A stretch of 64,000 nucleotides of DNA from an uncultured Candidatus Saccharibacteria bacterium (GTDB taxonomy: Bacteria > Patescibacteriota > Minisyncoccia > Phycocordibacterales > JACOZG01). The translations under genes and the position numbers were made by a program. Numbering within the stretch: the first letter of the stretch is position 1; each line of letters begins with the position of its first letter. The notes under the pieces are model-generated. The model did no database searches, was not told the origin of the DNA, and saw nothing but the letters and a program-made list of their open reading frames with translations. Positions 2,960 to 46,490 of this stretch are shown here, piece by piece. The stretch spans positions 68,579-132,578 of the forward strand of contig CAZYLF010000002.1 of NCBI GenBank assembly GCA_964648765.1. The letters are read 5' to 3'.

Positions 2960-3115
2960 CTTTCGGTCTCCTATTTAGGTTAACTTTTGGTCAAAATTCA
3001 CAAAGAACACCGCTATATTAATAGCATACTTCAATGAAAAAGTCAACAAAAAGGCCCTTCGACACGAAGTCGAAGGGCCAGGTAAAACGAAAGACCAAAT
3101 TCTAGCTTAATGCGG

Positions 3116-3967
3116 CTAGAGAACGCCGGCAGCCACAATAATTGCCACCACTATCATCGGTGCCACCAAAAGAAGAGCCGAAGCCGCATTCTTCTGTGTA
3201 ACCACTGCTCCACTCAGGGTTGTAGTTGGGAGGAAAAAATGATCCGCCAACCAAGTACACGCCCAAAGCAAAACAGCACCCACTCCTGCATACAAGCTAA
3301 ACGACATAATGTCTGCCGTCCAACCAGTGAATGGTCCAGTCAGACTGGCGCCGAGGATAATCCCCATACTCACCAGAAATCCACCGAAGACCACTCCCGC
3401 AGCTTGGTTTCCGTGACCCACCTGAAAGGCAGGATCAAAACCGAAACCATAAGAAGCCAAAGCGCTGATGATAACCAGCAACGCTTGACCAATAGCAAAG
3501 AACACAATCGCGCTACCCAACCCCCCACCATCTCCAGAAAAGGATCCGGCGGCGATCAATCCGGTAGCCACGTAACTACCCATCTCCACAATGCCGACTG
3601 CGATGTTATTCTCCTGCACCGCCTTGTTATTGTCGACACTATGCAAAATCAAATGGTCATTGATGTACGAGGAAATGGTCAAGAGTCCAATTACAATCAG
3701 ACCCTCAATGAACATATTCTGCACATCAAGCCAAAAGCTTTGCGACGCTCCACTCAAGGGGCCAGTTAGAGCAAAACCTAGACCCACAAGGAGTCCAACT
3801 TGCCGCAAACTGACCGCCATATTGCCCTTGTCTTCAATTTCCATTCGGTCATCGAATGGGGTCATTGCATCAGCCACCTTCTTCATCAGAAGAAGTTGTC
3901 CGAATGCAATCCCCAGCAAGACTACCGAACCCGAGATATGACCCAAATGAGTTGTCACAAAATCCAT
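3116..3967 (-). CDS. Membrane protein with repeated DUF350-like modules
   Basis: Internal repeat FDDRMEIEDKGNMAVSLRQVGLLVGLGFALTGPLSG versus DNNKAVQENNIAVGIVEMGSYVATGLIAAGSFSG, resembling the YjfL/DUF350 N-[IV]-A-V-G motif. Highly hydrophobic. Confidence 0.45.
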   Translation of the reverse strand: MDFVTTHLGHISGSVVLLGIAFGQLLLMKKVADAMTPFDDRMEIEDKGNMAVSLRQVGLLVGLGFALTGPLSGASQSFWLDVQNMFIEGLIVIGLLTISSYINDHLILHSVDNNKAVQENNIAVGIVEMGSYVATGLIAAGSFSGDGGGLGSAIVFFAIGQALLVIISALASYGFGFDPAFQVGHGNQAAGVVFGGFLVSMGIILGASLTGPFTGWTADIMSFSLYAGVGAVLLWACTWLADHFFLPTTTLSGAVVTQKNAASALLLVAPMIVVAIIVAAGVL

Positions 3968-4013
3968 TTGCTCAATCCTCCTTTTTTGAATTCTTCCTCA
4001 GTTTTGATAGCGA

Positions 4014-5666
4014 CTACTTGCCGCCACCACCAGGGCCACCACCACGACGGGCGGGTCCCGAACCACGAACAGAAGAGTCTGCTCTGCGGCCATTTGTCCC
4101 ACTACTCCCGGCCGTTTTCACTTCCCGGGCAACCTCTTTAAAGCCGCCCTGAGAAGCAAATTTACCCTGATTATATCGCCGAGATGAACGCACCGCACCG
4201 CTTGCGGTGCCGTAACGATTCTCCTCTCCGTCCCTTTCTCCGTAGTAATTTTTTGACCGGCCGCGATAATTGCTGTTCCAGTCATCCCACTCACTACGTC
4301 GGTAATAATGCGGCTGTCCGTCACCCAAGAGCATAGACATGAACCTATACTGTCCATACCATTCCCAAAAGCTATTGCCAGTCGCATCTTGTTTCCACGT
4401 GCCGTAACGTGCGTTACCCACTTGAGCCATCCCGGGAGGCGATGCTTCCTTAACTGCTTCGCTTTCGAAGCTGCCATAAGGCTTGGAGAGCAAAGCCATC
4501 CCAAGATTACCCCAATGACTGTCAAAGGTTCCAGCTGAAACTTCTTCCCAGTCACCTTCACTTTCTTTTTCATTTTTAATGAAAGTGTACTTGTGAAAAT
4601 ATTTTGGGGAAGTATCAACCAGATAGTATTCGGCATCGCCATGACTCGAGGATGGCCAATTTTCCTTTGGCTCAATCCCGAGAACATTCCACTTACCTTG
4701 ATCTATCTTAGTTGACAGGCCGCCCCAACCTCCGTAGCTGGCCACCAAACCGTCATCGGCCAGATCATCAAAGAAGTCAAAGACCTCCTCGCTAACCTGT
4801 CGCGGCTTGTAGTCATACTCCTTCTCAGTCGACCAGTCGGAACTCTCATCCCAACTAGTTCGACCAACAGTCACAAAGTAATCAGCGCGCATGTCGGCCA
4901 AAACTTTTGAATAGTCCTGGTACAGCTCACCAATTCCTTTTTCATACTCCGACGCTTGCTCACTGATAGTCGACGTTGCCGCCGCCACCAACTTGCAATT
5001 GTCTGCAAGCAACAACCAATCGGCATTTTTGCCTTTGGCCAGCTCGGCTTTAACGGTCGCTAAAGCCGTTGTGGCATCGCGACCTGTTTTTTGCACTGGG
5101 CTAAAGCGCTTCAAGATCTCATCCTTCTTGGGTTCATGATCCTTAAGCGCAGCCTCATGCTTAGTGAGAGACGTTTTAAGCCTCTCACTAATTTGCCTTA
5201 ACTCCTCCTCAGCTTTGGCTGCCCATTTGTCAGCACTGGCCTTAGCCTCAGAAATCAAAGCTACCCGCTCCCTAGGAACCTTGGCTTTGGTTGTCGCCTC
5301 CTTAATAGAGAGCTCAACTTGATCCAATTTTCCCTTCAACTTGGCGACATCATCACTATCATTGTTCTTGATGATTGCCGCCACGTCTTGATCAAAGATT
5401 TGACGTCCATGCTTGATCGCTTGATCAGCTTCAGCCAAAGTCCCCGACCACTTTTCTCGCTCGTCATAACGCTTGAGCTCAGCATAGTCTCCCGAAGCCA
5501 CCAGGGTTTTGTAACTCTGATTAGCATCATTGACCGCCGTCGTCGCTCTCGCCAAACTGTCTCCCACCAACTTCGCCTTCTCTTTGTCGGCTTTGGACAA
5601 GCCGCAGCCACCAAGAGAGAAAATGAGGAGAATCAGCGGCAATACCTGAAATTTCAATCGATTCAC
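4014..5666 (-). CDS. Lipoprotein, coiled-coil plus Trp/Tyr-rich domain, Gly/Arg-rich C-terminus
   Basis: Signal peptide with lipobox LIFSLGG-C. Long helical region rich in K/E/A. C-terminus ...RRGGGPGGGGK. Confidence 0.5.
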   Translation of the reverse strand: MNRLKFQVLPLILLIFSLGGCGLSKADKEKAKLVGDSLARATTAVNDANQSYKTLVASGDYAELKRYDEREKWSGTLAEADQAIKHGRQIFDQDVAAIIKNNDSDDVAKLKGKLDQVELSIKEATTKAKVPRERVALISEAKASADKWAAKAEEELRQISERLKTSLTKHEAALKDHEPKKDEILKRFSPVQKTGRDATTALATVKAELAKGKNADWLLLADNCKLVAAATSTISEQASEYEKGIGELYQDYSKVLADMRADYFVTVGRTSWDESSDWSTEKEYDYKPRQVSEEVFDFFDDLADDGLVASYGGWGGLSTKIDQGKWNVLGIEPKENWPSSSHGDAEYYLVDTSPKYFHKYTFIKNEKESEGDWEEVSAGTFDSHWGNLGMALLSKPYGSFESEAVKEASPPGMAQVGNARYGTWKQDATGNSFWEWYGQYRFMSMLLGDGQPHYYRRSEWDDWNSNYRGRSKNYYGERDGEENRYGTASGAVRSSRRYNQGKFASQGGFKEVAREVKTAGSSGTNGRRADSSVRGSGPARRGGGPGGGGK

Positions 5667-5671
5667 CTTTT

Positions 5672-6241
5672 CTAACTCCTTTCCGTTATTACTGTTGTTT
5701 CAGTGAAAACAATCGTGTTTTCATTTGGGTAAGAGTGAGCAGTTCTTGCGAACGCACCTCCACCTTGACGTGGACCAACATAAATCAATGTTTGAGGTAT
5801 CCACGGATCTTCCGACTTCTTAGGGAAGTCGTGACTCAAACCAATTTCACGAACAGAGTTCTTCGCGATCCCAATATCCAGTTGCAATTGCCCCAGTTTA
5901 TCAAGAGCCGAATCACCTGTTCTAACTTCGGAATCGAAGTTATAGGTTAGTCCACCCAAATCAAACTTCACCTGATCACGCGGAAGTGATTTAGCAACCA
6001 GCAATGGACGACCGCTAGTTGCTACATCCATGCAAGCAAACACTTCATTAAGAGCTTCGCCATCTGTGGTCGTAAAACGCAACACATGACTAGCCCCAAT
6101 GATTGCCGCTTGCACAAAGATCCCTCCACACCAACGTTCACGGACTTCGAGCAGATTAAACTGATCGAAATTCAGCGAGTCTTTACAAACCGTTAGGCGG
6201 AGTTCAACTGCAGATTGGTCGACATATACTGGTTCGCTCAT
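5672..6241 (-). CDS. Hypothetical protein in the speE-linked operon
   Basis: 189 aa ORF; 5-nt gaps to both neighbours. Confidence 0.45.
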   Translation of the reverse strand: MSEPVYVDQSAVELRLTVCKDSLNFDQFNLLEVRERWCGGIFVQAAIIGASHVLRFTTTDGEALNEVFACMDVATSGRPLLVAKSLPRDQVKFDLGGLTYNFDSEVRTGDSALDKLGQLQLDIGIAKNSVREIGLSHDFPKKSEDPWIPQTLIYVGPRQGGGAFARTAHSYPNENTIVFTETTVITERS

Positions 6242-6245
6242 ATCA

Positions 6246-6878
6246 CTATTTCTCCTCGTCGCCTGTAGCGATCACCTCAATTGACCGAACCGGTAGGCTA
6301 ACCGAAAGCCATGCCTCATAAGAATCTTCTTCACCCTCTTGCCACTCCTCAATGGTAAGATTTTCACCATCGCTTGCGGCAAACTCGTAGAAGTAGACCT
6401 TAATGGGCTTAGCATCAGCACTGCGCTTATACACCGCAGGCCAATCATCATCGTATTCGTAGACTTTCCGGTTCACCTTCAGTTCTTCACCAGCTTCACA
6501 GTACTCATCCAAATCCTCGGTGTCGACGGCGTTGCCATCTTCATCGATGATTTGGGTAGTTTTGACCTTACTTACGCTACGCCAGACCGTGACTTCATCA
6601 TCACGATCCCACTCAACGTAAATTGTCTCGCCAGTCAGAACATTAAACAGTGCCAGTTCAGTGGAAACAAAACTGAGCTTCTTCTTGAAGCTGTCATCCG
6701 TCTCCTGATATGTACTGACCTCTGTTACTTGGTACACCTGGCCAGAAAAGCGAATAAATCCGCCCTTCTTAACCGAGGTGATGTCGAAATTCGAACGCTC
6801 TGCTCGAGCAATCGGTTTCGTTAATGTCCGGATTGAACCAAATTGTCGATCCAGACGAGCTTTCGCTGTCACGTTCAT
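6246..6878 (-). CDS. Acidic hypothetical protein, possibly DUF4178-like
   Basis: 210 aa, D/E-rich C-terminal half. Its operon position is analogous to the small soluble proteins of mycobacterial speE clusters. The family assignment is from memory only. Confidence 0.4.
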   Translation of the reverse strand: MNVTAKARLDRQFGSIRTLTKPIARAERSNFDITSVKKGGFIRFSGQVYQVTEVSTYQETDDSFKKKLSFVSTELALFNVLTGETIYVEWDRDDEVTVWRSVSKVKTTQIIDEDGNAVDTEDLDEYCEAGEELKVNRKVYEYDDDWPAVYKRSADAKPIKVYFYEFAASDGENLTIEEWQEGEEDSYEAWLSVSLPVRSIEVIATGDEEK

Positions 6879-6930
6879 CAGAGCTCTCCTTTCTTTTCAA
6901 GATTTTAACTTGAAATGAGAAGTTTGATTT

Positions 6931-8088
6931 TTAAGAAGCAGCCGGCAACAACGCCGCTGCTTCGGGTTGATCTAGCGCTCCATATTGCGCCTTCACTTCC
7001 GGTTCCATTGCTCGGCTAAGTTCAGCCAATTTGGCTGAAACTTCCCGGGCTTGGGTCGTTCCCATCCTGATGGTATTTTCAACAGTACCGATGGTATTCA
7101 TCAGACTAGTGTGCGACTCTTCCAACTTGTCCAATGCAATCACTGGATTGTTGTAGAGGTCGCCGATTTCCACCGCCTGCGTTTCGAGCGCTTTCGCGTT
7201 TTCAACCATCATTGTTCCAAGAGTACCTTGGAACTCCTTGAGAGCATGTGCCACCCTTCTTTGGGTAGACAGAGCTTTATGAATGCGCAGACCATTCTGA
7301 AGAACACTTGGTCCTATCATAAGGGCGCTCTGCACTTGTTCATCGAGTAAGTTATTGGTCCGGAGTGCTTGCGTAATGGTAAGAGCAAACTGATTGTTTG
7401 CCTGTTCCATAGTACGCAAATCGCGAATGCGACGAGCCACCCGATCCAATTTACTGTCAAGCATTTTGATCTCAGTTTGGTCCGTTTCCGCCACCTTAAG
7501 AGCGCTCAAACGTTCCCAAACTAGCTCACCGACGTAAATCCACTTTTTGACTTCCAACTGACCGGAGTCAAGATCTTGGAATTGCTGGTGCATACCGATG
7601 GTTTGCTCCAACAACTGATCCTTTCCCGACCGTAAGCCGTCCAAAATAGTGGTAACATTGGTTTGCTCCGACTGCCAACGACCAGCAAAACGCCGGACGA
7701 TATGACGTCGAACCTTTGCCCCAAGCGGCAAATAACGAAACCACCAAGAATTGGTCAGGGAGTGGGGATTTAACTCCTCCATTACCGACCGAAGCTCAAG
7801 TAGCTTACTTGCCACAGGTGACTCTTCACCCTCAAAACTGCTTAAGAGCGACTGAGTACCGGCTCCAACTCGACGATTTACTTCTTCCATCTTTGTGATA
7901 GCTGAATGTCCAAACTTCCTCATAATATTGGAAACCTGGAATTCATCAGCTGCCCCGCCGATTTCGGTGGAAATAACCTCGGCATCCTGCCGAAGTGTAA
8001 TCTCCTTGGCATCATCAACGCCACGAGGACGCTTTGCAGCAATCACGGTGATTGCTTGGCTTTGCACATCATTGGGCATTTCACTCAT
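6931..8088 (-). CDS. All-helical protein, tentatively TelA/YaaN-like (toxic anion resistance family)
   Basis: 385 aa, the same size as TelA/YaaN. Predicted coiled-coil throughout. Preceded by an XpaC-like small TM protein, as in B. subtilis xpaC-yaaN. No diagnostic motif confirmed. Confidence 0.35.
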   Translation of the reverse strand: MSEMPNDVQSQAITVIAAKRPRGVDDAKEITLRQDAEVISTEIGGAADEFQVSNIMRKFGHSAITKMEEVNRRVGAGTQSLLSSFEGEESPVASKLLELRSVMEELNPHSLTNSWWFRYLPLGAKVRRHIVRRFAGRWQSEQTNVTTILDGLRSGKDQLLEQTIGMHQQFQDLDSGQLEVKKWIYVGELVWERLSALKVAETDQTEIKMLDSKLDRVARRIRDLRTMEQANNQFALTITQALRTNNLLDEQVQSALMIGPSVLQNGLRIHKALSTQRRVAHALKEFQGTLGTMMVENAKALETQAVEIGDLYNNPVIALDKLEESHTSLMNTIGTVENTIRMGTTQAREVSAKLAELSRAMEPEVKAQYGALDQPEAAALLPAAS

Positions 8089-23256: not shown

Positions 23257-23404
23257 CTTCGCTTACCTCCTTAGGTTAGAGTTATTTAAAAGTCCAAGTT
23301 TTAAAGAGATTTCAATCTCTCAAACTTCTACCCAAGATTATACACATTTACCGTCACCTGTCAAGGATTACATGCCACTTGTGTATTGAGGACTTATCAG
23401 CGAT

Positions 23405-24325
23405 TTACCAACTACCACTAGAGCCACCACCGCCTGAGGAACCGCCGCCAAATCCTCCTCCCCCACCGCCGCCACCTGACCATCCACCAAATCCTCCGCC
23501 ACCTATCCACCAAGGTGGTTTAGTCCCATTGTTCTTGCTTTTACGAAAAGTCCGAGAGACTAAAAAATCAAAAAGAAAACCAAACAAAGTTAAAAATAAA
23601 GCAAACAAAGCCACTGAAAGAGTAGGTTCAAAATATAAAACTAAGGCGCCCAACACACCTCCAAGCACTCCCCCTAACCACCATGATTTTGATCTGGCTA
23701 AAATACTAATTAAGAATACTGGAATGAACAATAATAATTCAGCGAGTCCAAAAAACATAACAACAATCATCCCAGCATAATAATCAAGACTTGATTTATT
23801 ATTATCAGCAATTGGCTGTTCACCAGATGTGACAAGATTGTTAAGCGCATGAAACCCCAATTTTAGACCTTCACCAAAATTACCCGCTTTAAATTGCGGG
23901 ATAAAATAGTTATCAATAATTTTTTTACTTGCCAAGTCAGTGACCACCGGCTCAAGACCATAACCTACCTCAATTCTTACTTCGCGATCATCTTTAGCAA
24001 CTAAAATTAAGAGTCCATTATCATCTTTGGCTTTACCAATTCCCCAAGTGTTAAAAATTTGTTCTGCCACCTCTTCAACTGTGTAATCATTGAGCGTGGA
24101 AATCGTAACAATCGCCACCTCAACCCCTGTCTGACTTTCAAGCTCCGTAATCTGGCTCTCAAGCAAAGCTTCGTCGTCACTTGTTAATAAATCAGCATTG
24201 TCAGTGACATAATTTGAAGTCGTCTCAGGCAAGCCAAATAAAGATAAGTTAAACGCACCAGCAAAACCCGCACTCGCGGTTAAAACAGAAAGAGAAAATA
24301 TTAGGCTAAGAAGGATCTTTTTCAA
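23405..24325 (-). CDS. TPM-domain protein (YgcG/TLP18.3-like) with C-terminal TM and Gly-rich tail
   Basis: Signal peptide. TPM core YVTDNADLLTSDDEALLESQITELESQTGVEVAIVTISTL...GLLILVAKDDREVRIEVGYGLE. Tail GGGGFGGWSGGGGGGGGFGGGSSGGGG. Confidence 0.8.
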   Translation of the reverse strand: MKKILLSLIFSLSVLTASAGFAGAFNLSLFGLPETTSNYVTDNADLLTSDDEALLESQITELESQTGVEVAIVTISTLNDYTVEEVAEQIFNTWGIGKAKDDNGLLILVAKDDREVRIEVGYGLEPVVTDLASKKIIDNYFIPQFKAGNFGEGLKLGFHALNNLVTSGEQPIADNNKSSLDYYAGMIVVMFFGLAELLLFIPVFLISILARSKSWWLGGVLGGVLGALVLYFEPTLSVALFALFLTLFGFLFDFLVSRTFRKSKNNGTKPPWWIGGGGFGGWSGGGGGGGGFGGGSSGGGGSSGSW

Positions 24326-26304: not shown

Positions 26305-26337
26305 GGGGCTAAAATTAGCATAGCTAACTAAAAAAGG

Positions 26338-26379
26338 CAAGAAAAAAGCCCCGCTCACCTTGTGAAAGGTTCGCGGGGC
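26338..26379 (-). terminator. Rho-independent terminator of the GHKL-ATPase operon, immediately upstream of the rpsP start
   Basis: Minus strand reads gccccgcgaacctttcacaaggtgagcggggc followed by ttttttc. Confidence 0.55.
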
Positions 26380-26405
26380 AAATACTACATGATACGCTGT
26401 GCAGA

Positions 26406-28139
26406 TTAGCCGAACACTTTTTTGGGCAACTTTTGTTTACCCTTAGCCGTCGTCGGTTTTCTTGCACCCTTCGCATCGCTATTCAGAATAAGAAAGACCT
26501 CTGCCTGGATCAAACGATCAAAGGCTCGTTTCAGAACCATTCGATCACCCGGCAAGAGAGAGTAAAGGGTGAGGACCTGAATCGCCACAAATTGCTGAAA
26601 GCGTGTGAGGGCCGCATCGCTACGTTCATCACAAGCCACAAACAATTCGTTGGCGATGTTATAGGTTAGGAGCCCAGTCTGATCATCAAAGCTCCAGACC
26701 TCAGAAGCCAACAAACGCTGGTAGTCAAACTGAAGTCCAAGACTGTTTGACTTAACAATCGTACGCTTGGTACCACGGCCACCAAAAACCGAAAGTGGGA
26801 TATGATCTGGACGCTCCTTCTCACCGGGGCCACTCGGCCCTCGACCACCACTAGGTGAATTAGGGGTTTTACCCTTATCATCACCTACCGCAAGAGAGGT
26901 CTCGGATTGCTCGCCCTTGACCTTCTTTTCTGGCACATCAGCATGATTGACACCAACACTGCCAAACTTAAGCCCCTTAACCACTCCAAGAAGATGGGCT
27001 TGCTTCGGATCACCGAAGAGCTTCTCCAGCAAACTCATGGCACGAGTGCCAATATCTTGCCAGCGAGTACTCTTCTTGGCCTGCTTTACTTCCGAATAAA
27101 GCACCTCGCCCCAACGCTTCCACCACTCTTCAATGGCAACAGCAAAGGAAATCCAGGCGTCGTCCTTGGCAAAGGAATTACGGTCTGCTAAGAGCGTAAC
27201 CTTTTCCGCCAAAATCTCACCTTCAAAGAATCCAGAATTCAAAGCATCAATGATCTCTTCATCCAACTGCCCCTCAAGCGACCGCAAAAAATAGAACATC
27301 GGAAAACGGAAGTCATTACCGAGGACACCGGTTACGATTTTCCCCTTGCGATCCTTCGGGACAAAGAGGGTGAACTTTACTCGACCCGCAAGTGAATTGC
27401 TAACCACGCGCTCTTCGAGCGGAGTTCCGTTGAAGATTGGTGCGCTCACATTGAGACGCTCCTCCTTCTTGCCATCTGGGCGCACCACAATCACATTAAC
27501 CTTAACGCGATTGCGACGCATCGTCACTCGAAAACGGTCTTGAATTGCATGCACCAGATTATCAATGGAGATAGCGCTGATCGAATCATCTTTGACAAAA
27601 CCATCAAGTGCCATCTCAGAACGCCATTCGAGCCTCTGGCCAGTCTTGCTATTGACGTTACCAAAAACCAGATCCCGTCGCTCCTCCATCGGAACCGACA
27701 GGCGGTCGCGACTTGCGATCAATTTAGCACTGTCAAACACCCATTGATAGTACGGGGTCTTCTGCCCTACCGGGCAGGAGGTAAAGGTGTGCTGTCGGCA
27801 TTTGCCAACTGGGCTCACCAGACCAATACCAAACTGACCAAGCGCATCCTTACCTTTGCGGTTGGGGTCAGCAATCGTCCGAAGAGCAGCGTTAAACTGC
27901 TCCTCTGTCGTACCGTTCCCATTGTCGCGCACCGTCAACCGACGAGTCGCAAAGTTGACATAAATGTCAACACGCGTGGCTTGAACATCGGTATCAATTG
28001 CGTTCTGCACCAACTCAAGGATGGTGTCAAAAAGTGTCGGGTAACGACCCGCCAAATGACCGAGAATTGCCCCCATATTGAAACCAAGGGGCACAAATTT
28101 CGGCGACGGATTAACAGTGGCACTACTTGCCATGACCAT
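26406..28139 (-). CDS. GHKL-superfamily ATPase of the MORC/HtpG/MutL-like (HATPase_c_3-type) group; the C-terminal ~380 aa is unassigned
   Basis: Bergerat motifs: N-box ILELVQNAIDT, G1 box VRDNGNGT, G2 box GQFGIGLVSPVGK. 577 aa. 17-nt overlap with the upstream HTH gene. Confidence 0.7.
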   Translation of the reverse strand: MVMASSATVNPSPKFVPLGFNMGAILGHLAGRYPTLFDTILELVQNAIDTDVQATRVDIYVNFATRRLTVRDNGNGTTEEQFNAALRTIADPNRKGKDALGQFGIGLVSPVGKCRQHTFTSCPVGQKTPYYQWVFDSAKLIASRDRLSVPMEERRDLVFGNVNSKTGQRLEWRSEMALDGFVKDDSISAISIDNLVHAIQDRFRVTMRRNRVKVNVIVVRPDGKKEERLNVSAPIFNGTPLEERVVSNSLAGRVKFTLFVPKDRKGKIVTGVLGNDFRFPMFYFLRSLEGQLDEEIIDALNSGFFEGEILAEKVTLLADRNSFAKDDAWISFAVAIEEWWKRWGEVLYSEVKQAKKSTRWQDIGTRAMSLLEKLFGDPKQAHLLGVVKGLKFGSVGVNHADVPEKKVKGEQSETSLAVGDDKGKTPNSPSGGRGPSGPGEKERPDHIPLSVFGGRGTKRTIVKSNSLGLQFDYQRLLASEVWSFDDQTGLLTYNIANELFVACDERSDAALTRFQQFVAIQVLTLYSLLPGDRMVLKRAFDRLIQAEVFLILNSDAKGARKPTTAKGKQKLPKKVFG

Positions 28140-28938
28140 TCTCCTTCTCTTTCTGTTTCAGCTCATCACAGTAGGACTCCGTGGCCCGTTCACCGCAAAG
28201 AGCATTCAAAACTATCGAACAATCTGCAATGGAGTGACCACTTCTTTCACAAAGCGAACGCAAGAAACGTCGCTCAGCGGGAGTATATTGCTCAGTTACC
28301 ACCTGGCTTGCCAAGCGATGAACGGCTGACACAATATCAACCAAAGTTAACACTACAGCACTGCGCGCTTCTGAATTTTCTGCACTGTTTTGCGTATCTT
28401 GTTTGTGCTGAGGCGATGGTTTGGAGCCTTCGAGTTCAGCATCATCCATAATAACTGCAATCTCTTTTTTCCAGTGACTCATCAGCTCATGATTTCTTGA
28501 CCGCAGCCGAGCGTTGATTTCTTCCATGATCGAAAGCTTATCGGGCGATAATGGTGAATCCCCATTAATCATCCGGTAAACGGTAGATTCATTTAAATTG
28601 AACTGCCTCACCAACTCAGAGGTCGAAACCAACCCAAGGGCGACGTTGGAGAAAAGTTCCCTAACTTCACTACCCGATCGCTCTCGCTCCAACTGATGAT
28701 AACCGGCCAACTCAAGAAAAAGCTTCAGTTTAGGCGAGACCTTCTGAAGCTCAAACTTGTCGTCCCTACTACCACGAAACCAACGTCTCATGGTTGATTC
28801 ATCAACTTCGAGTAGATTCTCAATGCGCTTGCGCACATTAAAAAGACCGTCTGTCTCGTTTCTTTTTTGAACAATATCTCTCAAAAATGCTGAGAAGCAT
28901 TCGGATGTTGTTCCACGAAATCTTACCTTGTTTGGCAT
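28123..28938 (-). CDS. HTH-domain protein co-operonic with the GHKL ATPase
   Basis: Helix-turn-helix-like segments ...LEVDESTMRRWFRG... and ...LVRQFNLNESTVYRMINGD... Acidic/basic C-terminal half. Confidence 0.5.
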   Translation of the reverse strand: MPNKVRFRGTTSECFSAFLRDIVQKRNETDGLFNVRKRIENLLEVDESTMRRWFRGSRDDKFELQKVSPKLKLFLELAGYHQLERERSGSEVRELFSNVALGLVSTSELVRQFNLNESTVYRMINGDSPLSPDKLSIMEEINARLRSRNHELMSHWKKEIAVIMDDAELEGSKPSPQHKQDTQNSAENSEARSAVVLTLVDIVSAVHRLASQVVTEQYTPAERRFLRSLCERSGHSIADCSIVLNALCGERATESYCDELKQKEKENGHGK

Positions 28939-29201
28939 TGTTCCCCCTTTCTGTTTCTGATTTCTATTGGTTTAGCAAAACCCGCTCTCAAGCCTCCAGC
29001 AAAGAGCATGATATTTCCGAGTTCAACCATTTGTCTTCTCTCGGGTTCACCATCCCCTTGCCAGTTGGATATCGAAAAAGTAACACTGTCACCTTCATCA
29101 ATTCCCAACTCAACAGCTTGATCATCAAGCACCGGCCAAGTCACGGCATAGCGACTATCGCTAGGCCCAGTAACTAAAGCCACCTCTGCTTTGATTACCA
29201 C
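28923..29201 (-). CDS. Small protein, possibly a SpoVT/AbrB-type swapped-hairpin domain; first gene of the island operon
   Basis: GTG start with RBS AAGGAGGAG. Segment RYAVTWPVLDDQAVELGIDEGDSVTFSIS resembles the AbrB/MazE V-x-I-P-x-x-x-R-x-x-L-G-I-x-x-G-D pattern. Confidence 0.35.
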   Translation of the reverse strand: MVIKAEVALVTGPSDSRYAVTWPVLDDQAVELGIDEGDSVTFSISNWQGDGEPERRQMVELGNIMLFAGGLRAGFAKPIEIRNRKGEQCQTR

Positions 29202-29312
29202 ATCTCTCCTCCTTTCTAATTCTTATTCTGAAAAGTTTTCAAAGACCATCCCCATCCACCCAATGTGGATTTCTAAGTACTTAACTATCATGTTAAAGTA
29301 ATAAAGTCAATT

Positions 29313-29341
29313 CTTGACAAGGGTTTCAATAGATGCATAAT
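29313..29341 (+). promoter_or_regulatory. Sigma-70-like promoter for the divergent plus-strand gene pair
   Basis: TTGACA, 16-17 nt, then cATAATg. Confidence 0.4.
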
Positions 29342-29403
29342 GTCCAACAGTTAAGCAAGGTTCTTTGGAAAGTTAGGAGGTGGTTTATCTGGATGAAGTT
29401 GTA

Positions 29404-29682
29404 ATGGCGATGGTAAAAAAGATTGTATCAAAGCCAGAACGTGGACCGCCGTACGCGGTGGCCAAAGCCGTTGGGATTAAGGGTTCAATAACCTTTAGGT
29501 TAACTCCCCCAGTGTGGTGTGATGACTCACCCCCAGAGGAAGGGGTTGCCGTCCGACTCACAAAACTTAAAAAGTTAGAGCGCGGATGGCGAGCAATGTC
29601 TGGACGGTTGTGGAAGCCGTCAGACGAAATTAAGCAGGGCCAAGAGCCCAAGCAGTCGGCTAAGCCGACAAGGAGCAAGTAG
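29404..29682 (+). CDS. Hypothetical small basic protein; start uncertain (the ORF track begins at GTG 29380 inside the RBS)
   Basis: RBS AGGAGGTG at 29375-29382. ORF ends TAG and overlaps the next GTG start by 1 nt. Confidence 0.35.
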   Translation: MAMVKKIVSKPERGPPYAVAKAVGIKGSITFRLTPPVWCDDSPPEEGVAVRLTKLKKLERGWRAMSGRLWKPSDEIKQGQEPKQSAKPTRSK

Positions 29683-30248
29683 TGAATAAACACGAGGTAA
29701 CGAAATTGCTGCTGAATCAATTTGGTGAAAATTGCAAACAGCTCGAAAAGCTGTGGCAAAACGCGATGAAGATGGTTAACGTTGAGCGAGAAAGGCTCAA
29801 CAAAATACACGGCGAGAAACTGGTCGACGCTCTGTTCAACACCCTTGGGATTACCCTCCCACCCATGTCGACCAAGAAAAAGGTAAAGGTGCCCAATGAG
29901 GACCAAAACCAAGCAAAGATGGCCAAAAAGTCCGCTGTCACCGTAACGCCCAAGAAGAAAAAGCGGCCGACGCCGAAGTATGATTTGCCTTACAACCAGT
30001 TGCGTGACCACGTATTGCAGTGGCTCACAGAAAATCCACCCCAGGATCAATTCACCAGTAAACAAGCCGTTGAGATCATGAGGATACGTCTCGGCAGCAA
30101 CTCATTTGATTCAGGGCACGTTTCTTTGGCACTCTTACATCTCACTGGCGTCAAACATATCGGTAGGCTGAGTCAGAATGGTGGGCCCCAAATCAACGTC
30201 TACCAGTTGACTGGCGAACAGATTGAAAAAAAGAAAGCCGGAAAGTAA
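29682..30248 (+). CDS. Hypothetical protein with a Lys-rich central linker
   Basis: GTG start with AAGGAG RBS. 188 aa. Followed by a strong terminator. Confidence 0.45.
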   Translation: MNKHEVTKLLLNQFGENCKQLEKLWQNAMKMVNVERERLNKIHGEKLVDALFNTLGITLPPMSTKKKVKVPNEDQNQAKMAKKSAVTVTPKKKKRPTPKYDLPYNQLRDHVLQWLTENPPQDQFTSKQAVEIMRIRLGSNSFDSGHVSLALLHLTGVKHIGRLSQNGGPQINVYQLTGEQIEKKKAGK

Positions 30249-30274
30249 CAACTTTCTGGCCGTTTCAAACCCCG

Positions 30275-30312
30275 CCCCCCAGTGCCAATGTGCGCTGGGG
30301 GGATTTTTTTAT
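30275..30312 (+). terminator. Rho-independent terminator closing the island on the plus strand
   Basis: Hairpin ccccccag-tgccaatgtgcg-ctgggggg followed by atttttttatt. Confidence 0.6.
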
Positions 30313-32276: not shown

Positions 32277-32438
32277 ATGCTTGTACTAATTCTGAAAGTT
32301 ACGATTATTCTTTTATTCCTCTCCACTTTCTCTTGTTTTTACTTTTGGACGTGGAAGTTTATCGTGCCATTTTTCTCCTCCCTACTTTTGCTTGGCGCCG
32401 TTTTCGGCGTACACCATTTGTCGGATATGCTTACTTAA
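32277..32438 (+). CDS. Possible 53-aa two-TM micro-protein immediately after rnr
   Basis: ATG 3 nt after the rnr stop. Highly hydrophobic (LVLILKVTIILLFLSTFSCFYFW...LLLLGAVFGV). Below the ORF-track size cutoff. Confidence 0.25.
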   Translation: MLVLILKVTIILLFLSTFSCFYFWTWKFIVPFFSSLLLLGAVFGVHHLSDMLT

Positions 32439-32691
32439 AATATCCTTCGGCTTTAAGTAAGCTAGTTTTCTCGGCCTGCCCGCCACGATTGTAAGCGCCA
32501 ATTTTGCCATCACTTCTGACCACACGATGACACGGCACACTTTTATCAAAATTCCCTTTCATAATATTCCCCACTGCTCGCGCCGCACCAGGTGAGCCGG
32601 CCATTTCCGCCACTTGTTTGTAGGTTAGAACTTCACCCTTCGGAATCTTCTTCACAATATCCTGCACTCGAGATTTAAAAGTGGACTTCAT
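32431..32691 (-). CDS. Stand-alone methylated-DNA-protein-cysteine methyltransferase C-terminal (DNA-binding/active-site) domain
   Basis: Active-site VPCHRVV plus GAYNRGG and HTH-like KQVAEMAGSPGAARAVG. Only 86 aa. Confidence 0.7.
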   Translation of the reverse strand: MKSTFKSRVQDIVKKIPKGEVLTYKQVAEMAGSPGAARAVGNIMKGNFDKSVPCHRVVRSDGKIGAYNRGGQAEKTSLLKAEGYFK

Positions 32692-32820
32692 AATTCAAAT
32701 ATAACAAAAAGCGATTCTTTTCCAAAACATCTTAATGAAATTACGACCGTTGAGACAGTAAGATATTAAATGAAAATAAAAAACCGCCGGAGACGAGATT
32801 GCTTTCTCGTTCCGGCAGAG

Positions 32821-33216
32821 TTACTCATTACGAGTAGAGTTCTTGGCGACCATTCTGATTTGTTCCAAAGTGAGAGAGCCGAGGCGTTTGTATAAATCGA
32901 GCAACTCTCCAAATTCTGGTTCCTCAATTTTCTCCAGCTTTGCCTCCACTATAGATCCAAGTAGCGGGAGGATATTCAACCCAGTGCGATTTTCCTGCGG
33001 CGTTTCTTTTTTTAGTAAGTCCTCCATCTCCTTAACTGTTACGCCGTAAGCTTTAGCAATCTTGGGCATATTACTTGAGTTGGGATAGTACTTCCCATTT
33101 TCCCAACTCGAAACGCTAGCCTGTTTTGATCCTATTTCCCTCGTAACATCCTCCTGTTTTTTACCTAACTCCTTCCTTTTTTTCCTCAGAAAATCACCGA
33201 GGTCTTTCTTAGACAT
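32821..33216 (-). CDS. XRE-family HTH transcriptional regulator
   Basis: GKKQEDVTREIGSKQASVSSWENGKYYPNSSNMPKIAKAYGVTVKEM. Confidence 0.75.
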   Translation of the reverse strand: MSKKDLGDFLRKKRKELGKKQEDVTREIGSKQASVSSWENGKYYPNSSNMPKIAKAYGVTVKEMEDLLKKETPQENRTGLNILPLLGSIVEAKLEKIEEPEFGELLDLYKRLGSLTLEQIRMVAKNSTRNE

Positions 33217-33311: not shown

Positions 33312-35528
33312 TTACTTGGCATACACAGTCGCGTCGTCGAATTTGATGGAGAGTAAGCGTGACACGCCATCTGAGCCCATCGTCACACCGTAAATCACCG
33401 AGGCGCGACTCATGGTCTCGCGATTGTGAGTAATCAAAATTAATTGGGAATGCTTAGCTAAATTCTCAATCATGTCGCCATACTTACGCGAGTTGGCTTC
33501 ATCAAGCGCGGCGTCCGTTTCGTCTAAAATTAAAAATGGTGGCGGGTTCACCTGCGACATGGCGAAAAGTAACGCGATGGAAGTAAGTGCGCGTTCGCCA
33601 CCCGAGAGCATCTCAAGCGCGTGAACTTTTTTACGTGGCAGATTAACTTTTATCTCTATGCCAGATTTAGTTTCTGTTTCTTCACCAATCGCCATTAAAT
33701 TTGGGATATCTTCACCGCCCTCCTCCATCTCATTTTTTCTTTTGCTCTTTGGCTCAGCGATCGCCTTCAACTGCGCCTCACCACCGCCAAACATTAGTGA
33801 AAAATATTTTTGAAAGTTTATATTAATTTTTTCCAAACCAGTTTGGAATTCTTTATCAATCCGTTCTCGCAATTCATTAATCACCGTCTCAAGTGATGTG
33901 CGGCTCGCCGCCAAATCTGTTAGCTCTTTGGTTAAAAATTCATCCCTCGCCTCCACTTGCTTGTGCTCCGTAAGCACACCGCTTGAATCCACGCCCATGT
34001 CCTCAAGTCTTATCTTTAACTTTTCTATTGCTCGCAAACGCGCAATTTGTTCCTCGCGAGATTCTTCATTTACCTCACTCGGAATTTCCGCCTCATTAAA
34101 ATTTAAAATTTCTTGATCCACCAACACCTGACCCTCGGTCAGTTCTTTTTTAAAAGCATTTTCTTCCAACCTTAATTTATCATCCCGACTTTGCCATAAA
34201 GCCATATGCGAGTCGCTCTCCCGACGGCGCGCTAAGAGCTCATAACTCTCCCGATCTGCTTCCCTGGCCTCATTCATCTTTGACTCTAACTCGATATTTA
34301 TTTGCGCTTCTCTGTTGAGATATTCCTTCTCCTCATTTTTTATTTCACCAATTTTTGATTCCAGTTCATTTTGATCAGATTTAAGTTTCGTTAACTCCTT
34401 GTCTCTCGCCTCAGCCTCATCGTCATTAGATTCTTTTGTTAACTTTTGCCAAAAGTTTTTAATTAAATCTTTAATTTTTTGCCAAGCGCCTTCGGTGGCC
34501 AATCTCTCAATTTCGTCAGTCAAAGTCGCCACCTGATCGCGCGACAAGTAACCACCCTCAACCTCTTTGGGTAGCTTTACTTCAGACTTAAATTGGATCA
34601 AGCCTTCAAGCCGCCCGAGCTGGCGTTCTGAATCTGCTAATTGCTCTCGGCATGCTCTTAAATTAGTTTGGATCTGTCCCAACTCTTTCCGTAAATTACC
34701 CAGCAAATCTTGGTTTGGGTTAGTAACAGAACTTATACTTTTTAATTTTTGCTCTAGATATTTTTTGTCACTTTCTAACTTAGTTTTCTCACTATCAAGT
34801 AAGGCACGAGAATCTTTTAAATACTTGTCTTCAATTTTTAAGTATATTAAATACAGTCTTTTTAATTCAAAGCGTAAATCGTCCGCCTTTTTAATTTTCT
34901 CTACTTCACGGCGCAAAAATTTAAGGTGCGGAGCAATTTCTCGCCTGAGCGATTCCACTTGTTTAATATTTTCTTCAGTTTTCTCTAACTTTTTTTCACT
35001 CTCACTAATCTTCCATTGATAAAGTCGGAGGCCTAGGGCATCTTCCACCATGGTTCGCCGAGAGGCAATATCAGTATTTAAAATTCTATCTGCTTCACCT
35101 TGGCGAATAATTGTGTGCCCTGAGGCACCAAGTGAACCACCAGCCAAAAGTTCCACCACATCCCGCAAACGTACCTCACTGCCGTTAATTGTGTACACGT
35201 TTGTACCATCGCGGTGCACCTCGCGACCAATCGTAAGTTCCGGAAAGTCGACATTAAACTTCCGATCATGGTTATCGAATGTTAGCGTCACTCCGGCGCG
35301 ATTTACTTTACTCTGATTCCCAGCTCCATTAAAAATTAAATCTTCACCCCTCTTACCGCGCAGTGATTTAAGCGACTGCTCACCAAGCGCCCAGCGGAAA
35401 GCTTCCGCCACATTCGACTTGCCCGAACCATTTGGCCCCACCACCGCGGTTACCGGTGCATCGAAAGTTAAAACCGTTTTTTTATTAAAAGATTTAAAGC
35501 CAGAAAGTGTTAACTCTTTAAGCCGCAT
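33312..35528 (-). CDS. smc: SMC-family chromosome segregation ATPase, short form (738 aa)
   Basis: Walker A GPNGSGKSNV. Long coiled coils. ABC signature LSGGERALTSIALLFAM. Walker B FLILDETDAALD. Confidence 0.8.
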   Translation of the reverse strand: MRLKELTLSGFKSFNKKTVLTFDAPVTAVVGPNGSGKSNVAEAFRWALGEQSLKSLRGKRGEDLIFNGAGNQSKVNRAGVTLTFDNHDRKFNVDFPELTIGREVHRDGTNVYTINGSEVRLRDVVELLAGGSLGASGHTIIRQGEADRILNTDIASRRTMVEDALGLRLYQWKISESEKKLEKTEENIKQVESLRREIAPHLKFLRREVEKIKKADDLRFELKRLYLIYLKIEDKYLKDSRALLDSEKTKLESDKKYLEQKLKSISSVTNPNQDLLGNLRKELGQIQTNLRACREQLADSERQLGRLEGLIQFKSEVKLPKEVEGGYLSRDQVATLTDEIERLATEGAWQKIKDLIKNFWQKLTKESNDDEAEARDKELTKLKSDQNELESKIGEIKNEEKEYLNREAQINIELESKMNEAREADRESYELLARRRESDSHMALWQSRDDKLRLEENAFKKELTEGQVLVDQEILNFNEAEIPSEVNEESREEQIARLRAIEKLKIRLEDMGVDSSGVLTEHKQVEARDEFLTKELTDLAASRTSLETVINELRERIDKEFQTGLEKININFQKYFSLMFGGGEAQLKAIAEPKSKRKNEMEEGGEDIPNLMAIGEETETKSGIEIKVNLPRKKVHALEMLSGGERALTSIALLFAMSQVNPPPFLILDETDAALDEANSRKYGDMIENLAKHSQLILITHNRETMSRASVIYGVTMGSDGVSRLLSIKFDDATVYAK

Positions 35529-44433: not shown

Positions 44434-44463
44434 CATACTATACTACTTAGTTTAATTTGTCAA
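44434..44463 (-). promoter_or_regulatory. Sigma-70-like promoter overlapping the gyrB stop codon
   Basis: Minus strand reads TTGACA, a 17-nt spacer, then TAGTAT (alternatively TATAGT with a 15-nt spacer). Confidence 0.4.
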
Positions 44464-46490
44464 ACATCCAAGTTGGCCATCTTGGCGTGGGTTTGGATGA
44501 AGATTTTACGAGGTTCAACTTCTGAACCCATAAGCACGGTGAAGGTTTTGTCGGCTTCCGAAGCCTCTTTAATATCCACACGTTTAAGTACGCGCTTCTC
44601 TGGATCCATGGTTGTCTCCCAAAGTTCTTCTGGATTCATTTCTCCAAGACCTTTATAACGCTGCACAGAAACTTTAGCTACCTTAACTTCTGCCTCGGGC
44701 ACGTCCGTTTCAGTCTCCCTTTCAATTAAATCTTCTGGCTTGCCACCCAAACGTTTAACGATTTTATTTTTATCGTCTTCAGAGAATGAATAAACAATTT
44801 CTTTACCCTTTTTAATTTTGAAAAGTGGTGGTTGCGCAATGTATAAATATCCGCCGGAAATAATGGTGGGGAAATGACGATAGAAAAGAGTGAGAAGAAG
44901 CGTGCGGATGTGCGCGCCGTCCACGTCGGCATCAGTGGCGATAATAATTTTGTGATAGCGCAATTCTCCAAGGTCAAAGTTCTCACCAATTGACGTACCA
45001 AGAGCGATAATCAAGGACTTAATTTCTTTAAATGCGAGCATTTTATCGAGCCGCGCACGTTCAACGTTTAAAATTTTACCTTTAAGTGGCAAGATGGCTT
45101 GCGTGCGACGATCACGACCTTGCTTAGACGAGCCACCGGCTGAATCTCCCTCAACGATAAAAAGTTCTGCTTCCTCGGCCTTTTTAGTTTGGCAATCCGC
45201 GAGTTTACCTGGCAACATTAAACCTTCAAGTGCGCCTTTACGTAAGATAGAATCTTTAGCCGCTTTAGCTGCCTTGCGCGCGCGCAGTGCAATAATCACT
45301 TTATTTACAATTGCTCGCGCGTCTTCAGGATTCTCTTCTAAAAAGAGTGAGAGAGAATCACTAAAGGCCGTCTCCACCGCACCACGCACTTCAACGTTGC
45401 CGAGTTTAGCTTTAGTTTGACCCTCAAATTGTGGGTTACGAAGTTTAACCGAGATTACAGCCGTGATACCCTCGCGCACATCGTCGCCAGTGAAGGCGCC
45501 GTCGGCATCTTTAGCCATATTATTCTTCTTAGCGTAATCATTTAAGCCACGAGTGAGCGCTGTGCGGAAACCGGTTAAGTGTGTGCCACCTTCGGGCGTG
45601 ATGGTGTTGTTGGTGTAAGTAATTTCGCGAGCAATAATGTCGTCGATGTATTGGAAAGCAATTTCAATATTAATTTCATTTACCTCCTTCTCCGCGTAGA
45701 AAACATTTTTATGTCCCGGCTTCTCATTTTGGTTTAAGAAGCGCACGAGCGACAAAAGTCCACCTTCAAAGTAAAATGTTTTAGAAGGTAAAGGTAAATC
45801 CAATTCTCTTAAATATAAAACTTTTTCAGCCTCAATTTTGCCGGTGTAACCACGGGCATCAATGGCGCGAACTCTTAATTTTTTAACTAAATAGGCTTGG
45901 CCTCGGAGATGATTGGTGATCCTATTAAAATCGTAAATTAAATCTGAGAAGATCTGGGCGTCAGGTTTAAAGGTGATCACCGTGCCGTGCTCTTTAGTCT
46001 TGCCGATTTGTTTAACATTTGCCTTCTTTTTACCACGAGCAAATTCTTGAAAGTGAATTCCACCTTCACGATACACATGAGCTTGTAACCACTCAGAAAG
46101 CGCGTTCACCACCGATGCTCCCACACCGTGGAGACCACCGGAAATTTTATACCCCTCACCTTCAAACTTTCCACCTGCGTGGAGCACCGTGAGCACTGTC
46201 TCGAGTGCCGAGACTCCAGTCTTTTTATGTATCGTCACGGGGATACCGGCGCCGTTGTCGGCTACGCGGATCACATCACCAGGCAAAATTGCCACCTCGA
46301 TTTCATCACACGAACCGTTCATCGCCTCATCGCGTGAGTTGTCGAAAATTTCTACGAGCAAGTGATGGAGGCCATCAGTGCCTGTGGAGCCAATATACAT
46401 ACCTGGGCGCTTACGCACCGGTTCTAGGCCCTCAAGGACTACGATATCTTCAGCGTCGTATTTACGTTGTTTAGGGCTCTCTTTAGGCAT
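44460..46490 (-). CDS. gyrB: DNA gyrase subunit B
   Basis: GHKL N-domain LHAGGKFEGEGYKISGGLHGVGASVVNALS. TOPRIM EGDSAGGS...PLKGKILNVE. Ends ...ANLDV-TGA. Confidence 0.96.
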   Translation of the reverse strand: MPKESPKQRKYDAEDIVVLEGLEPVRKRPGMYIGSTGTDGLHHLLVEIFDNSRDEAMNGSCDEIEVAILPGDVIRVADNGAGIPVTIHKKTGVSALETVLTVLHAGGKFEGEGYKISGGLHGVGASVVNALSEWLQAHVYREGGIHFQEFARGKKKANVKQIGKTKEHGTVITFKPDAQIFSDLIYDFNRITNHLRGQAYLVKKLRVRAIDARGYTGKIEAEKVLYLRELDLPLPSKTFYFEGGLLSLVRFLNQNEKPGHKNVFYAEKEVNEINIEIAFQYIDDIIAREITYTNNTITPEGGTHLTGFRTALTRGLNDYAKKNNMAKDADGAFTGDDVREGITAVISVKLRNPQFEGQTKAKLGNVEVRGAVETAFSDSLSLFLEENPEDARAIVNKVIIALRARKAAKAAKDSILRKGALEGLMLPGKLADCQTKKAEEAELFIVEGDSAGGSSKQGRDRRTQAILPLKGKILNVERARLDKMLAFKEIKSLIIALGTSIGENFDLGELRYHKIIIATDADVDGAHIRTLLLTLFYRHFPTIISGGYLYIAQPPLFKIKKGKEIVYSFSEDDKNKIVKRLGGKPEDLIERETETDVPEAEVKVAKVSVQRYKGLGEMNPEELWETTMDPEKRVLKRVDIKEASEADKTFTVLMGSEVEPRKIFIQTHAKMANLDV

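Follow-up and report, generated by a model that had tools for sequence, protein, structure and literature searches.

MutL, MORC, the type II topoisomerases and Hsp90 are dimeric clamps of the GHKL superfamily that close on ATP binding. Eukaryotic MORC proteins are recruited by sequence-specific DNA-binding factors, and their output is compaction or silencing. To our knowledge, nucleases, helicases and methylases accompany every described prokaryotic MORC-like system. None of these is present in the gene cassette analysed here, which lies in a 64,000-nt stretch of patescibacterial DNA (contig CAZYLF010000002.1, positions 68,579–132,578; hereafter the window) and pairs a 577-amino-acid (aa) GHKL ATPase with a 271-aa helix-turn-helix (HTH) protein. 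The abundant Patescibacteria live as episymbionts, mostly uncultured, and their genomes are very small; only a few of their accessory gene modules have been characterised. What defines the prokaryotic MORC proteins and paraMORC1–5 is either an operon that also encodes superfamily II (SF-II) helicases, methylases and endonucleases, or a nuclease or TIR domain fused to the protein (Iyer, Abhiman & Aravind 2008, PMC2292703). In CapK–CapS, a GHKL-superfamily protein is encoded adjacent to a DNA-binding repressor. CapK is small, resembles anti-sigma kinases and has no transducer; CapS is a repressor of the STAS-domain type, and the two genes are found upstream of an immune operon (PMC13373217). In Mza (MzaB), Tiamat (TmtA) and GHKL-Shedu (VcSduA, PMC12137116), a GHKL ATPase is likewise the engine of a compact accessory module.

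The cassette is real, recurrent and self-contained, and it has three orphan partner families. It is apparently undescribed: full-text literature searches found no description of a cassette of GHKL ATPase, XRE protein and small protein, nor of the family in Patescibacteria. Our tentative reading is that it is an autoregulated, non-nucleolytic, DNA-directed clamp-ATPase conflict module of Patescibacteria. Five intact open reading frames (ORFs) lie between two terminators and are arranged as two divergent operons with their promoters back to back. Cassette positions below count within the window.

26338–26379, minus strand: intrinsic terminator of the ATPase operon (RNA fold and scan)
26406–28139, minus strand: GHKL ATPase, 577 aa (ORF and homologues)
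28123–28938, minus strand: HTH partner, 271 aa (ORF and homologues)
28923–29201, minus strand: small protein SML92, 92 aa, first gene of the ATPase operon
29202–29379, no strand: divergent control region (promoter scan, sequence and alignment with relative L001)
29380–29682, plus strand: small protein SML100, 100 aa, first gene of the divergent operon
29682–30248, plus strand: basic accessory protein BAS, 188 aa, second gene of the divergent operon
30275–30312, plus strand: intrinsic terminator of the divergent operon (scan and RNA fold)

An original prediction, made from the letters of this DNA, had proposed the same five ORFs, and all of their coordinates agree with the ORF list. The minus-strand genes, predicted to overlap by 16–17 nt, overlap by 16 nt and 17 nt. 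The 17-nt overlap is reduced to 11 nt if the ATPase begins at the ATG of the 575-aa database copy P0001. On the plus strand, the BAS start overlaps the SML100 stop by 1 nt. The ORFs are regarded as real genes because they have homologues elsewhere and a ratio of nonsynonymous to synonymous divergence (dN/dS) of 0.11–0.36 in comparison with a close relative.

The large protein is a clamp-type GHKL+S5 ATPase that forms its own family. The Bergerat motifs ELVQNAIDT, DNGNGT and GQFGIGL, named in the original prediction, are all present and are conserved in the family. Motifs I–III of the GHKL superfamily (ExxxNxxD, DxGxG, GxxGxG) are conserved across 38 homologues. The active-site residues (E42, N46 and D49; D72, G74 and G76; G101, G104 and G106) are intact and family-conserved. 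In the 38-homologue alignment, the invariant or near-invariant transducer set is K95, C114, D184, E306-G307-E308 and R320. Invariant residues gather in the GHKL and transducer part; in the C-terminal third they are limited to G468 and N494. In Pfam, the protein matches HATPase_c_3 (PF13589) with 49.4 bits against a cutoff of 25 (E=6e-13, residues 38–136 only), and the predicted assignment to GHKL ATPases of the MORC–MutL–Hsp90 type holds.

The AlphaFold model of the ATPase has a predicted local distance difference test (pLDDT) score of 84.8. It is made up of a GHKL domain (~20–180), a beta-rich S5-like transducer (~190–320), two long helices (327–388), a disordered Gly/Pro/Ser linker (421–448) and a compact alpha/beta C-terminal domain (449–553). 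The transducer follows the GHKL domain, as in the clamp class that includes MutL, MORC, GyrB and Hsp90. The C-terminal 380 aa had been marked for a search for an S5 fold or a nuclease domain; Foldseek and AlphaFold show the S5-like transducer, but the remainder has no nuclease fold. The best Foldseek matches are full-length Hsp90s (E ~3e-15, 440–480 aligned columns, template modelling (TM) score ~0.4), and in structure comparison the C-terminal domain resembles that of HtpG. The best sequence-profile match in PDB is the MutL N-terminal domain (E=5e-8, ~60 residues only). The C-terminus is probably structural, for dimerisation or partner binding.

The 271-aa partner is encoded directly upstream of the ATPase in all but two of the assessable loci, and the two genes mostly overlap or lie a few tens of bases apart. 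In total, ~40 loci have the partner gene next to, or overlapping, that of the ATPase. The partner co-evolves with the ATPase: across 33 loci their pairwise identities correlate (mirror-tree r=0.78; Mantel 0/2000). The family profile detects a first HTH of the XRE/Cro-C1 type at about residues 25–70, with PDB matches to 3op9 (E=3e-4) and the P22 C2 repressor (E=0.009). A second, weaker HTH at about 86–157 matches Aca2, DBP48 and the cyanase N-domain in PDB. In the window partner, the two HTHs are placed at about residues 35–70 and 100–130, and the second contains NESTVYRMINGD, the segment in which the original prediction had recognised an HTH. Single members of the partner family match HTH_17, HTH_31, HTH_3, HTH_23 and HTH_26 in Pfam; the window partner alone is below the Pfam cutoffs, and its XRE/Cro-C1 assignment comes from the family profile. 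After the HTHs there is a variable linker and then a C-terminal helical domain, which is the most conserved part of the protein and carries the motif SDxFTxxxRxxLR...F.LSN.L.RLCSExAR. A word-indexed search with the 271-aa protein alone returned itself and one relative, and a locus-based survey with hidden Markov models (HMMs) was used instead.

In L127 (1915–3396) the partner is 464–493 aa long, about twice the usual size, with a typical small protein before it and a basic ParB_N-like protein after it. In the two most divergent ATPase loci (L042 5471–5983 and L043 2869–3378), a 170-aa upstream ORF is unmatched by the partner HMM and may encode a partner that has diverged, or another partner altogether. 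A relationship to MADS was considered and rejected. Five of 35 partners match mad1, at E>=0.002 and at the level of the HTH only, and the ATPase has no mad match.

In an exhaustive profile search, the ATPase family comprises 454 clusters (50% identity) at E<=1e-30. Clusters with a labelled source come almost entirely from patescibacterial metagenome assemblies. The best 150 of the 454 matches are mostly full-length (~520–630 aa). A word-indexed ATPase search had returned 39 relatives only. Among 185,579 species representatives (one genome per species), there are 34 loci at different sites, nearly all of them in metagenome-assembled genomes (MAGs) labelled Saccharibacteria, Paceibacterota, Parcubacteria, Microgenomates or 'Patescibacteria group'. 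In the fetched loci, all ORFs were compared with per-protein HMMs of the island proteins. L005 has the full five-gene layout between topA and parB, with an ATPase 42% identical to that of the window. The module-bearing MAGs of L028, L030, L032, L033, L036, L023 and L038 are labelled Gammaproteobacteria, Thermotogae or Acidobacteriaceae; the bins may be mislabelled, or the host range may be wider.

SML92 and SML100 are paralogues by BLASTP and HMM, with ...SITF.L..W....P..G..V.L.....GWRA... in common. The SML92 family consensus is ...SITFSL..W....P.kGQVV.L.....GWRA.... A homologue of SML92 precedes the partner gene in about half of the loci. The small family has 19 database relatives, all of them stand-alone proteins of 78–121 aa, and none of the 20 members tested has a Pfam, PHROG or PDB sequence match. 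The original prediction had called the 92-aa protein SpoVT/AbrB/MazE-like. In sequence comparisons this does not hold: no Pfam match, PF04014 included, is found in the 20 family members at E<=1, and the motif has the wrong spacing, with eight residues rather than three between P and LGI. The family does not conserve the P and G-D positions of the AbrB motif, and the paralogue has a deletion of eight residues. The AbrB identity of SML92 fails because only the window protein and its closest relative have the loop.

A gene of the SML100 type is in the same divergent position in L001/L002 and L004/L005. The start of SML100 is uncertain because the listed GTG follows the Shine-Dalgarno sequence AGGAGG without a spacer (window 29373–29382); gene callers differ on this start between L001 and L002/L003. 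BAS has a helical N-terminus, a Lys/Arg-rich linker and a conserved C-terminal domain of ~80 aa that, by eye, looks like a winged helix. It is an orphan family with no Pfam or PDB match in sequence and family-profile searches. Besides the window, BAS homologues are encoded divergently from the ATPase operon in L004/5, L008, L011 and L012, and a second small paralogue accompanies BAS in the window, L001/2 and L004/5. In L001/2, where the rest of the module is intact, a BAS remnant of 90 aa (L001 5993–6265, L002 804–1076) lacks its N-terminal half and the last part of its C-terminal domain. BAS is therefore dispensable or decaying. The divergent two-gene unit, which had been suggested as a source of regulators or effectors, belongs to the module since BAS recurs as an accessory in other loci; SML100 is paralogous to SML92, and the five-gene layout recurs in L005.

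The block has its own promoters and terminators, as claimed, and both predicted terminators have a stem and a U-run with z −3.0. The minus-strand terminator has a 7-bp GC-rich outer stem (GCCCCGC...GCGGGGC) and an inner stem, followed by the U-run UUUUUUCUUGCCUUUUUU. Its fold (26325–26405, minus strand) has an energy of −25.4 kcal/mol; the scan listed a weaker version. By eye, its U-tract overlaps a possible rpsP promoter, TTGCCT-17-TAATTT with an upstream TG. The plus-strand terminator has an 11-bp stem with 9 GC pairs, followed by the U-run AUUUUUUU (−24.7 kcal/mol).

The predicted near-consensus promoter of the divergent unit is present at 29314–29341. The promoter scan gives TTGACA (29314–29319)-16-CATAAT (29336–29341) on the plus strand, with 11/12 consensus matches. 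On the minus strand, a promoter identified by eye has a −35 box TTGACT (29310–29305), a 17-nt spacer and an extended −10 box TGATAGTTA (29290–29282). The back-to-back −35 boxes form the inverted repeat GTCAA-TTC-TTGAC (29306–29318). Immediately downstream of the minus-strand −10 box is the palindrome TCCAC-CCAAT-GTGGA (29255–29269), a candidate operator. In the alignment with L001, the −35 boxes, the palindrome arms and the 5' leader are kept, although the flanking coding DNA is 60–79% identical. Tight autoregulation is argued for by the conservation of the two abutting promoters and of the palindrome, and by the prediction of DNA binding for four of the proteins.

The island evolves differently from its surroundings in the comparison with the one close relative that has the block at the same site, on which the following figures rest. 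Flanking proteins are 91–97% identical to those of the relative, whereas the ATPase is 76%, SML92 74%, the partner 61% and SML100 56% identical, and BAS is degraded. The dN is 0.18–0.39 in the island and 0.02–0.055 in the flanks (3–9x), and dN/dS is 0.11–0.36 and 0.04–0.06, respectively. With dN 3–9x that of the flanks and dN/dS below 1, the island genes are functional yet several-fold faster than their neighbours. Because dS is near saturation, rapid evolution and an old allelic replacement are inseparable here.

The original prediction that the cassette matches no named system is borne out: PADLOC and NCBIfam give weak N-terminal GHKL matches only. In PADLOC-DB v2 (Mza, Tiamat and others), the ATPase has N-terminal GHKL matches at E 8e-5 or weaker, the partner matches at the level of the HTH only, and the small and basic proteins are without a match. 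Mza, Tiamat and GHKL-Shedu thus differ from the cassette in that the N-terminal GHKL region alone matches its ATPase. Every curated full-length model in PADLOC and NCBIfam (HtpG, MutL, MzaB, TopoVI-B, histidine kinases) fails widely for the ATPase. An identity as canonical HtpG, MutL or GyrB is rejected on HMM cutoffs. A canonical GyrB is encoded elsewhere in the window (44460–46490).

MutL differs from the cassette ATPase in score (23 bits on TIGR00585 against a cutoff of 180), in its C-terminal fold and endonuclease motif, which the ATPase lacks, and in context, as there is no MutS or MutH at the cassette. Against Hsp90/HtpG models the ATPase scores 17.4 and 28 bits, with cutoffs of 371 and 455, over the N-terminus only; in structure, the resemblance reaches a TM score of only ~0.4. 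Unlike Hsp90/HtpG, the ATPase is operonic with DNA-binding proteins and its family is patchy and fast-evolving. The helicase, methylase, nuclease and TIR features of MORC and paraMORC are absent from the protein and from 138 neighbouring genes, and the partner in the cassette is instead an XRE HTH protein. The characters of MORC sensu stricto are lacking: the ATPase has no Morc6_S5 match at E<=1 and its neighbours have no enrichment of helicases, methylases or endonucleases. The paraMORC1–5 characters (a restriction-modification (R-M) operon, or a fused C-terminal domain of the restriction endonuclease fold, TIR or HxH type) are likewise not found.

An identity with CapK/CapS is rejected, as the cassette has a 577-aa clamp ATPase, an XRE partner and no controlled downstream operon. 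By analogy, CapK–CapS is a possible model for a GHKL protein that controls a transcription factor. Eukaryotic MORC is alike in having a DNA-binding adaptor and a GHKL+S5 clamp without a nuclease, which is a functional analogy only. It is unlike the cassette in that no orthology is shown and the cassette is without CW or chromatin-reader domains. By these comparisons, the cassette would work most like the matchmaker or clamp ATPases of the MutL or MORC type, as a member of neither.

The loci of the cassette differ between genomes, and their surroundings are mostly housekeeping genes. Neighbours include EF-G, aminoacyl-tRNA synthetases, P-type ATPases, ClpB-like AAA proteins, RNase III and ParB. 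PADLOC matches among the neighbours are few and are mostly generic ATPase, helicase and ParB look-alikes. The original prediction had described the block as an insertion that splits a conserved rpsP–rnr synteny. This is not supported: among 80 metagenome RNase R loci, 41–50% identical to that of the window, 0/80 show rpsP, khpA, trmD or SMC within 8 kb. The rpsP-khpA-trmD genes are a normal operon. No Rfam element is found around the island. Without an integrase, repeats, a tRNA target or an empty site, the block does not have the character of an integrative element or genomic island.

The proposed mechanism is conditional on dimerisation, contact between partner and ATPase, DNA clamping, autoregulation and a biological role that we infer. 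The conserved core would be a two-protein machine of the GHKL clamp ATPase and the XRE-HTH partner. The partner would bind its own operator, or else target foreign or aberrant DNA, and its conserved C-terminal domain would recruit or gate the ATPase. The ATPase dimer would be held by the C-terminal domain, and ATP-driven closure of the N-termini would clamp, compact or remodel DNA or DNA–protein complexes. The cassette has no nuclease, protease, NADase or membrane effector, and the ATPase would therefore entrap, compact or remodel its target and not cleave it. The outcome may be the silencing or blocking of invading DNA, or growth arrest. SML92, SML100 and BAS would be optional DNA-binding or regulatory subunits, probably acting at the common promoter region. 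An accessory conflict role, in defence or silencing, is favoured by the patchy distribution, the variable loci and the fast, constrained evolution. If the cassette is a conflict system, foreign DNA would be restrained without cutting, and the cassette would be a bacterial model for adaptor-directed GHKL clamps.

Several results weigh against this reading. None of the five proteins has a recognisable effector domain, which is the main puzzle, and the conflict role would be that of a family without a characterised relative. At least 90% of the ATPase family keeps H497 (FNIRHP) and E516 (LQExVAI) in the C-terminal domain, and the window ATPase and its closest relative P0002 (76% identical) have N and Q at these consensus positions. 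The 138 nearest genes in 38 loci are of the housekeeping type and do not form defence islands. No mobility genes are beside the module, and integrases, transposases and R-M genes are not enriched among these neighbours. The island has no flanking direct repeats, and the nearest tRNA is 22 kb off. No relatives are found in IMG/VR, INPHARED or PLSDB, in which elements of the Candidate Phyla Radiation (CPR) are poorly sampled. No empty site is found: the only close relative (L001–L003) and all contigs with an identical KhpA carry the block there. Because no empty site is found, mobility is inferred from the differing loci in distant genomes only. Of the original description as a mobile defence or stress module, the varied loci and fast evolution stand, but mobility genes, a defence-island context and phage or plasmid relatives are missing, and the description is unproven.

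A more specific form of the conflict role seems rather unlikely. In this form, the XRE adaptor would load a MORC/MutL-like clamp onto invading or self DNA and give nuclease-free immunity or silencing by ATP-driven entrapment or compaction. If true, such silencing would be a prokaryotic counterpart of adaptor-directed eukaryotic MORC silencing and apparently specific to Patescibacteria with their reduced genomes. The new small protein family, of which each operon has a copy as its first gene, would then serve as a silencing switch.

The sporadic distribution, variable loci and fast, constrained evolution are also consistent with an addiction module of the toxin–antitoxin type. Here, the partner and/or the small proteins would neutralise and repress a toxic ATPase or BAS, loss would be harmful and there would be no defence role. 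In both operons, translation of a small first gene is coupled to that of a larger gene downstream. XRE HTH proteins often serve as antitoxins, and the partner has a weak match to an Xre-like-HTH antitoxin (E=0.09) and weak HigA-2 matches in the PDB profile search. However, no known toxin fold is found among the cassette proteins, and we know of no toxin type that is a 577-aa clamp ATPase. The small proteins are missing in about half of the loci and BAS in most, and neither is thus an essential antidote. The partner also has the size of a regulator of two domains with an interaction domain added. We regard an addiction module as unlikely. A regulatory or addiction module would still include at least four unannotated protein families, with ~450 ATPase clusters at 50% identity.

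A lineage-specific housekeeping or stress function, as a divergent Hsp90-like chaperone or a MutL-like repair matchmaker with its own transcription factor, is similarly unlikely. The full-length Hsp90s at the head of the Foldseek matches, the HtpG-like C-terminal domain, the MutL N-terminal domain as best profile match and the housekeeping, often chromosome-maintenance, neighbours are all congruent with this function, as is the close relative with the block at the same site. The sequence scores are not: the ATPase reaches 17–28 bits against HtpG and MutL equivalog cutoffs of 180–750 and has no MutL C-terminal domain match. The family is rare and patchy in species representatives, the locus is not conserved, dN is 3–9x that of the flanks, and the tight coupling of the ATPase is with DNA-binding proteins, not with co-chaperones.

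That the cassette is a remnant or cargo of an unrecognised CPR mobile element, with a cI/Cro-like switch and an ATPase acting on element DNA (immunity, partition or replication control), is very unlikely: the divergent promoter, palindrome, XRE HTH, slightly raised GC content, differing loci and the ParB_N-like gene that follows the module in L127 fit it, but no integrase, replication, structural or transfer genes adjoin the 38 loci, IMG/VR, INPHARED and PLSDB (with their poor sampling of CPR elements) have no relatives, and the island ends in a clean terminator on either side, with no att-like repeats. The remaining probability belongs to something else.

By inspection, the module is repeatedly beside chromosome-maintenance genes. 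These are SMC; TopA and ParB; ParB_N-like, DnaA and DnaN; and DnaG and RpoD (window 33312–35528; L004 3456–5651 and 10155–11162; L127 5689–11339; L126 7819–10967). This may reflect merely the gene-dense genomes of the CPR. Between rnr and SMC, the window encodes an MGMT-like DNA_binding_1 protein (86 aa) and an HTH_3 XRE protein (131 aa) on the minus strand (32431–33216). Both genes are absent from relative L001, which indicates a second small indel next to the island.

GC content is higher in the island, as had been suggested by eye (0.48, against 0.436 in the rest of the window, with 0.50 in the ATPase gene), but 6% of the equal-sized windows in the same 64 kb match it. At window positions 1400–8000, the GC content is 0.47–0.49, equal to that of the island. 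A Pro-rich 133-aa ORF on the plus strand (23379–23780) mirrors, in antisense, the Gly-rich tail of a 306-aa protein on the minus strand (23405–24325) and is almost certainly not a gene. The 306-aa protein is membrane-associated and is encoded beside LemA.

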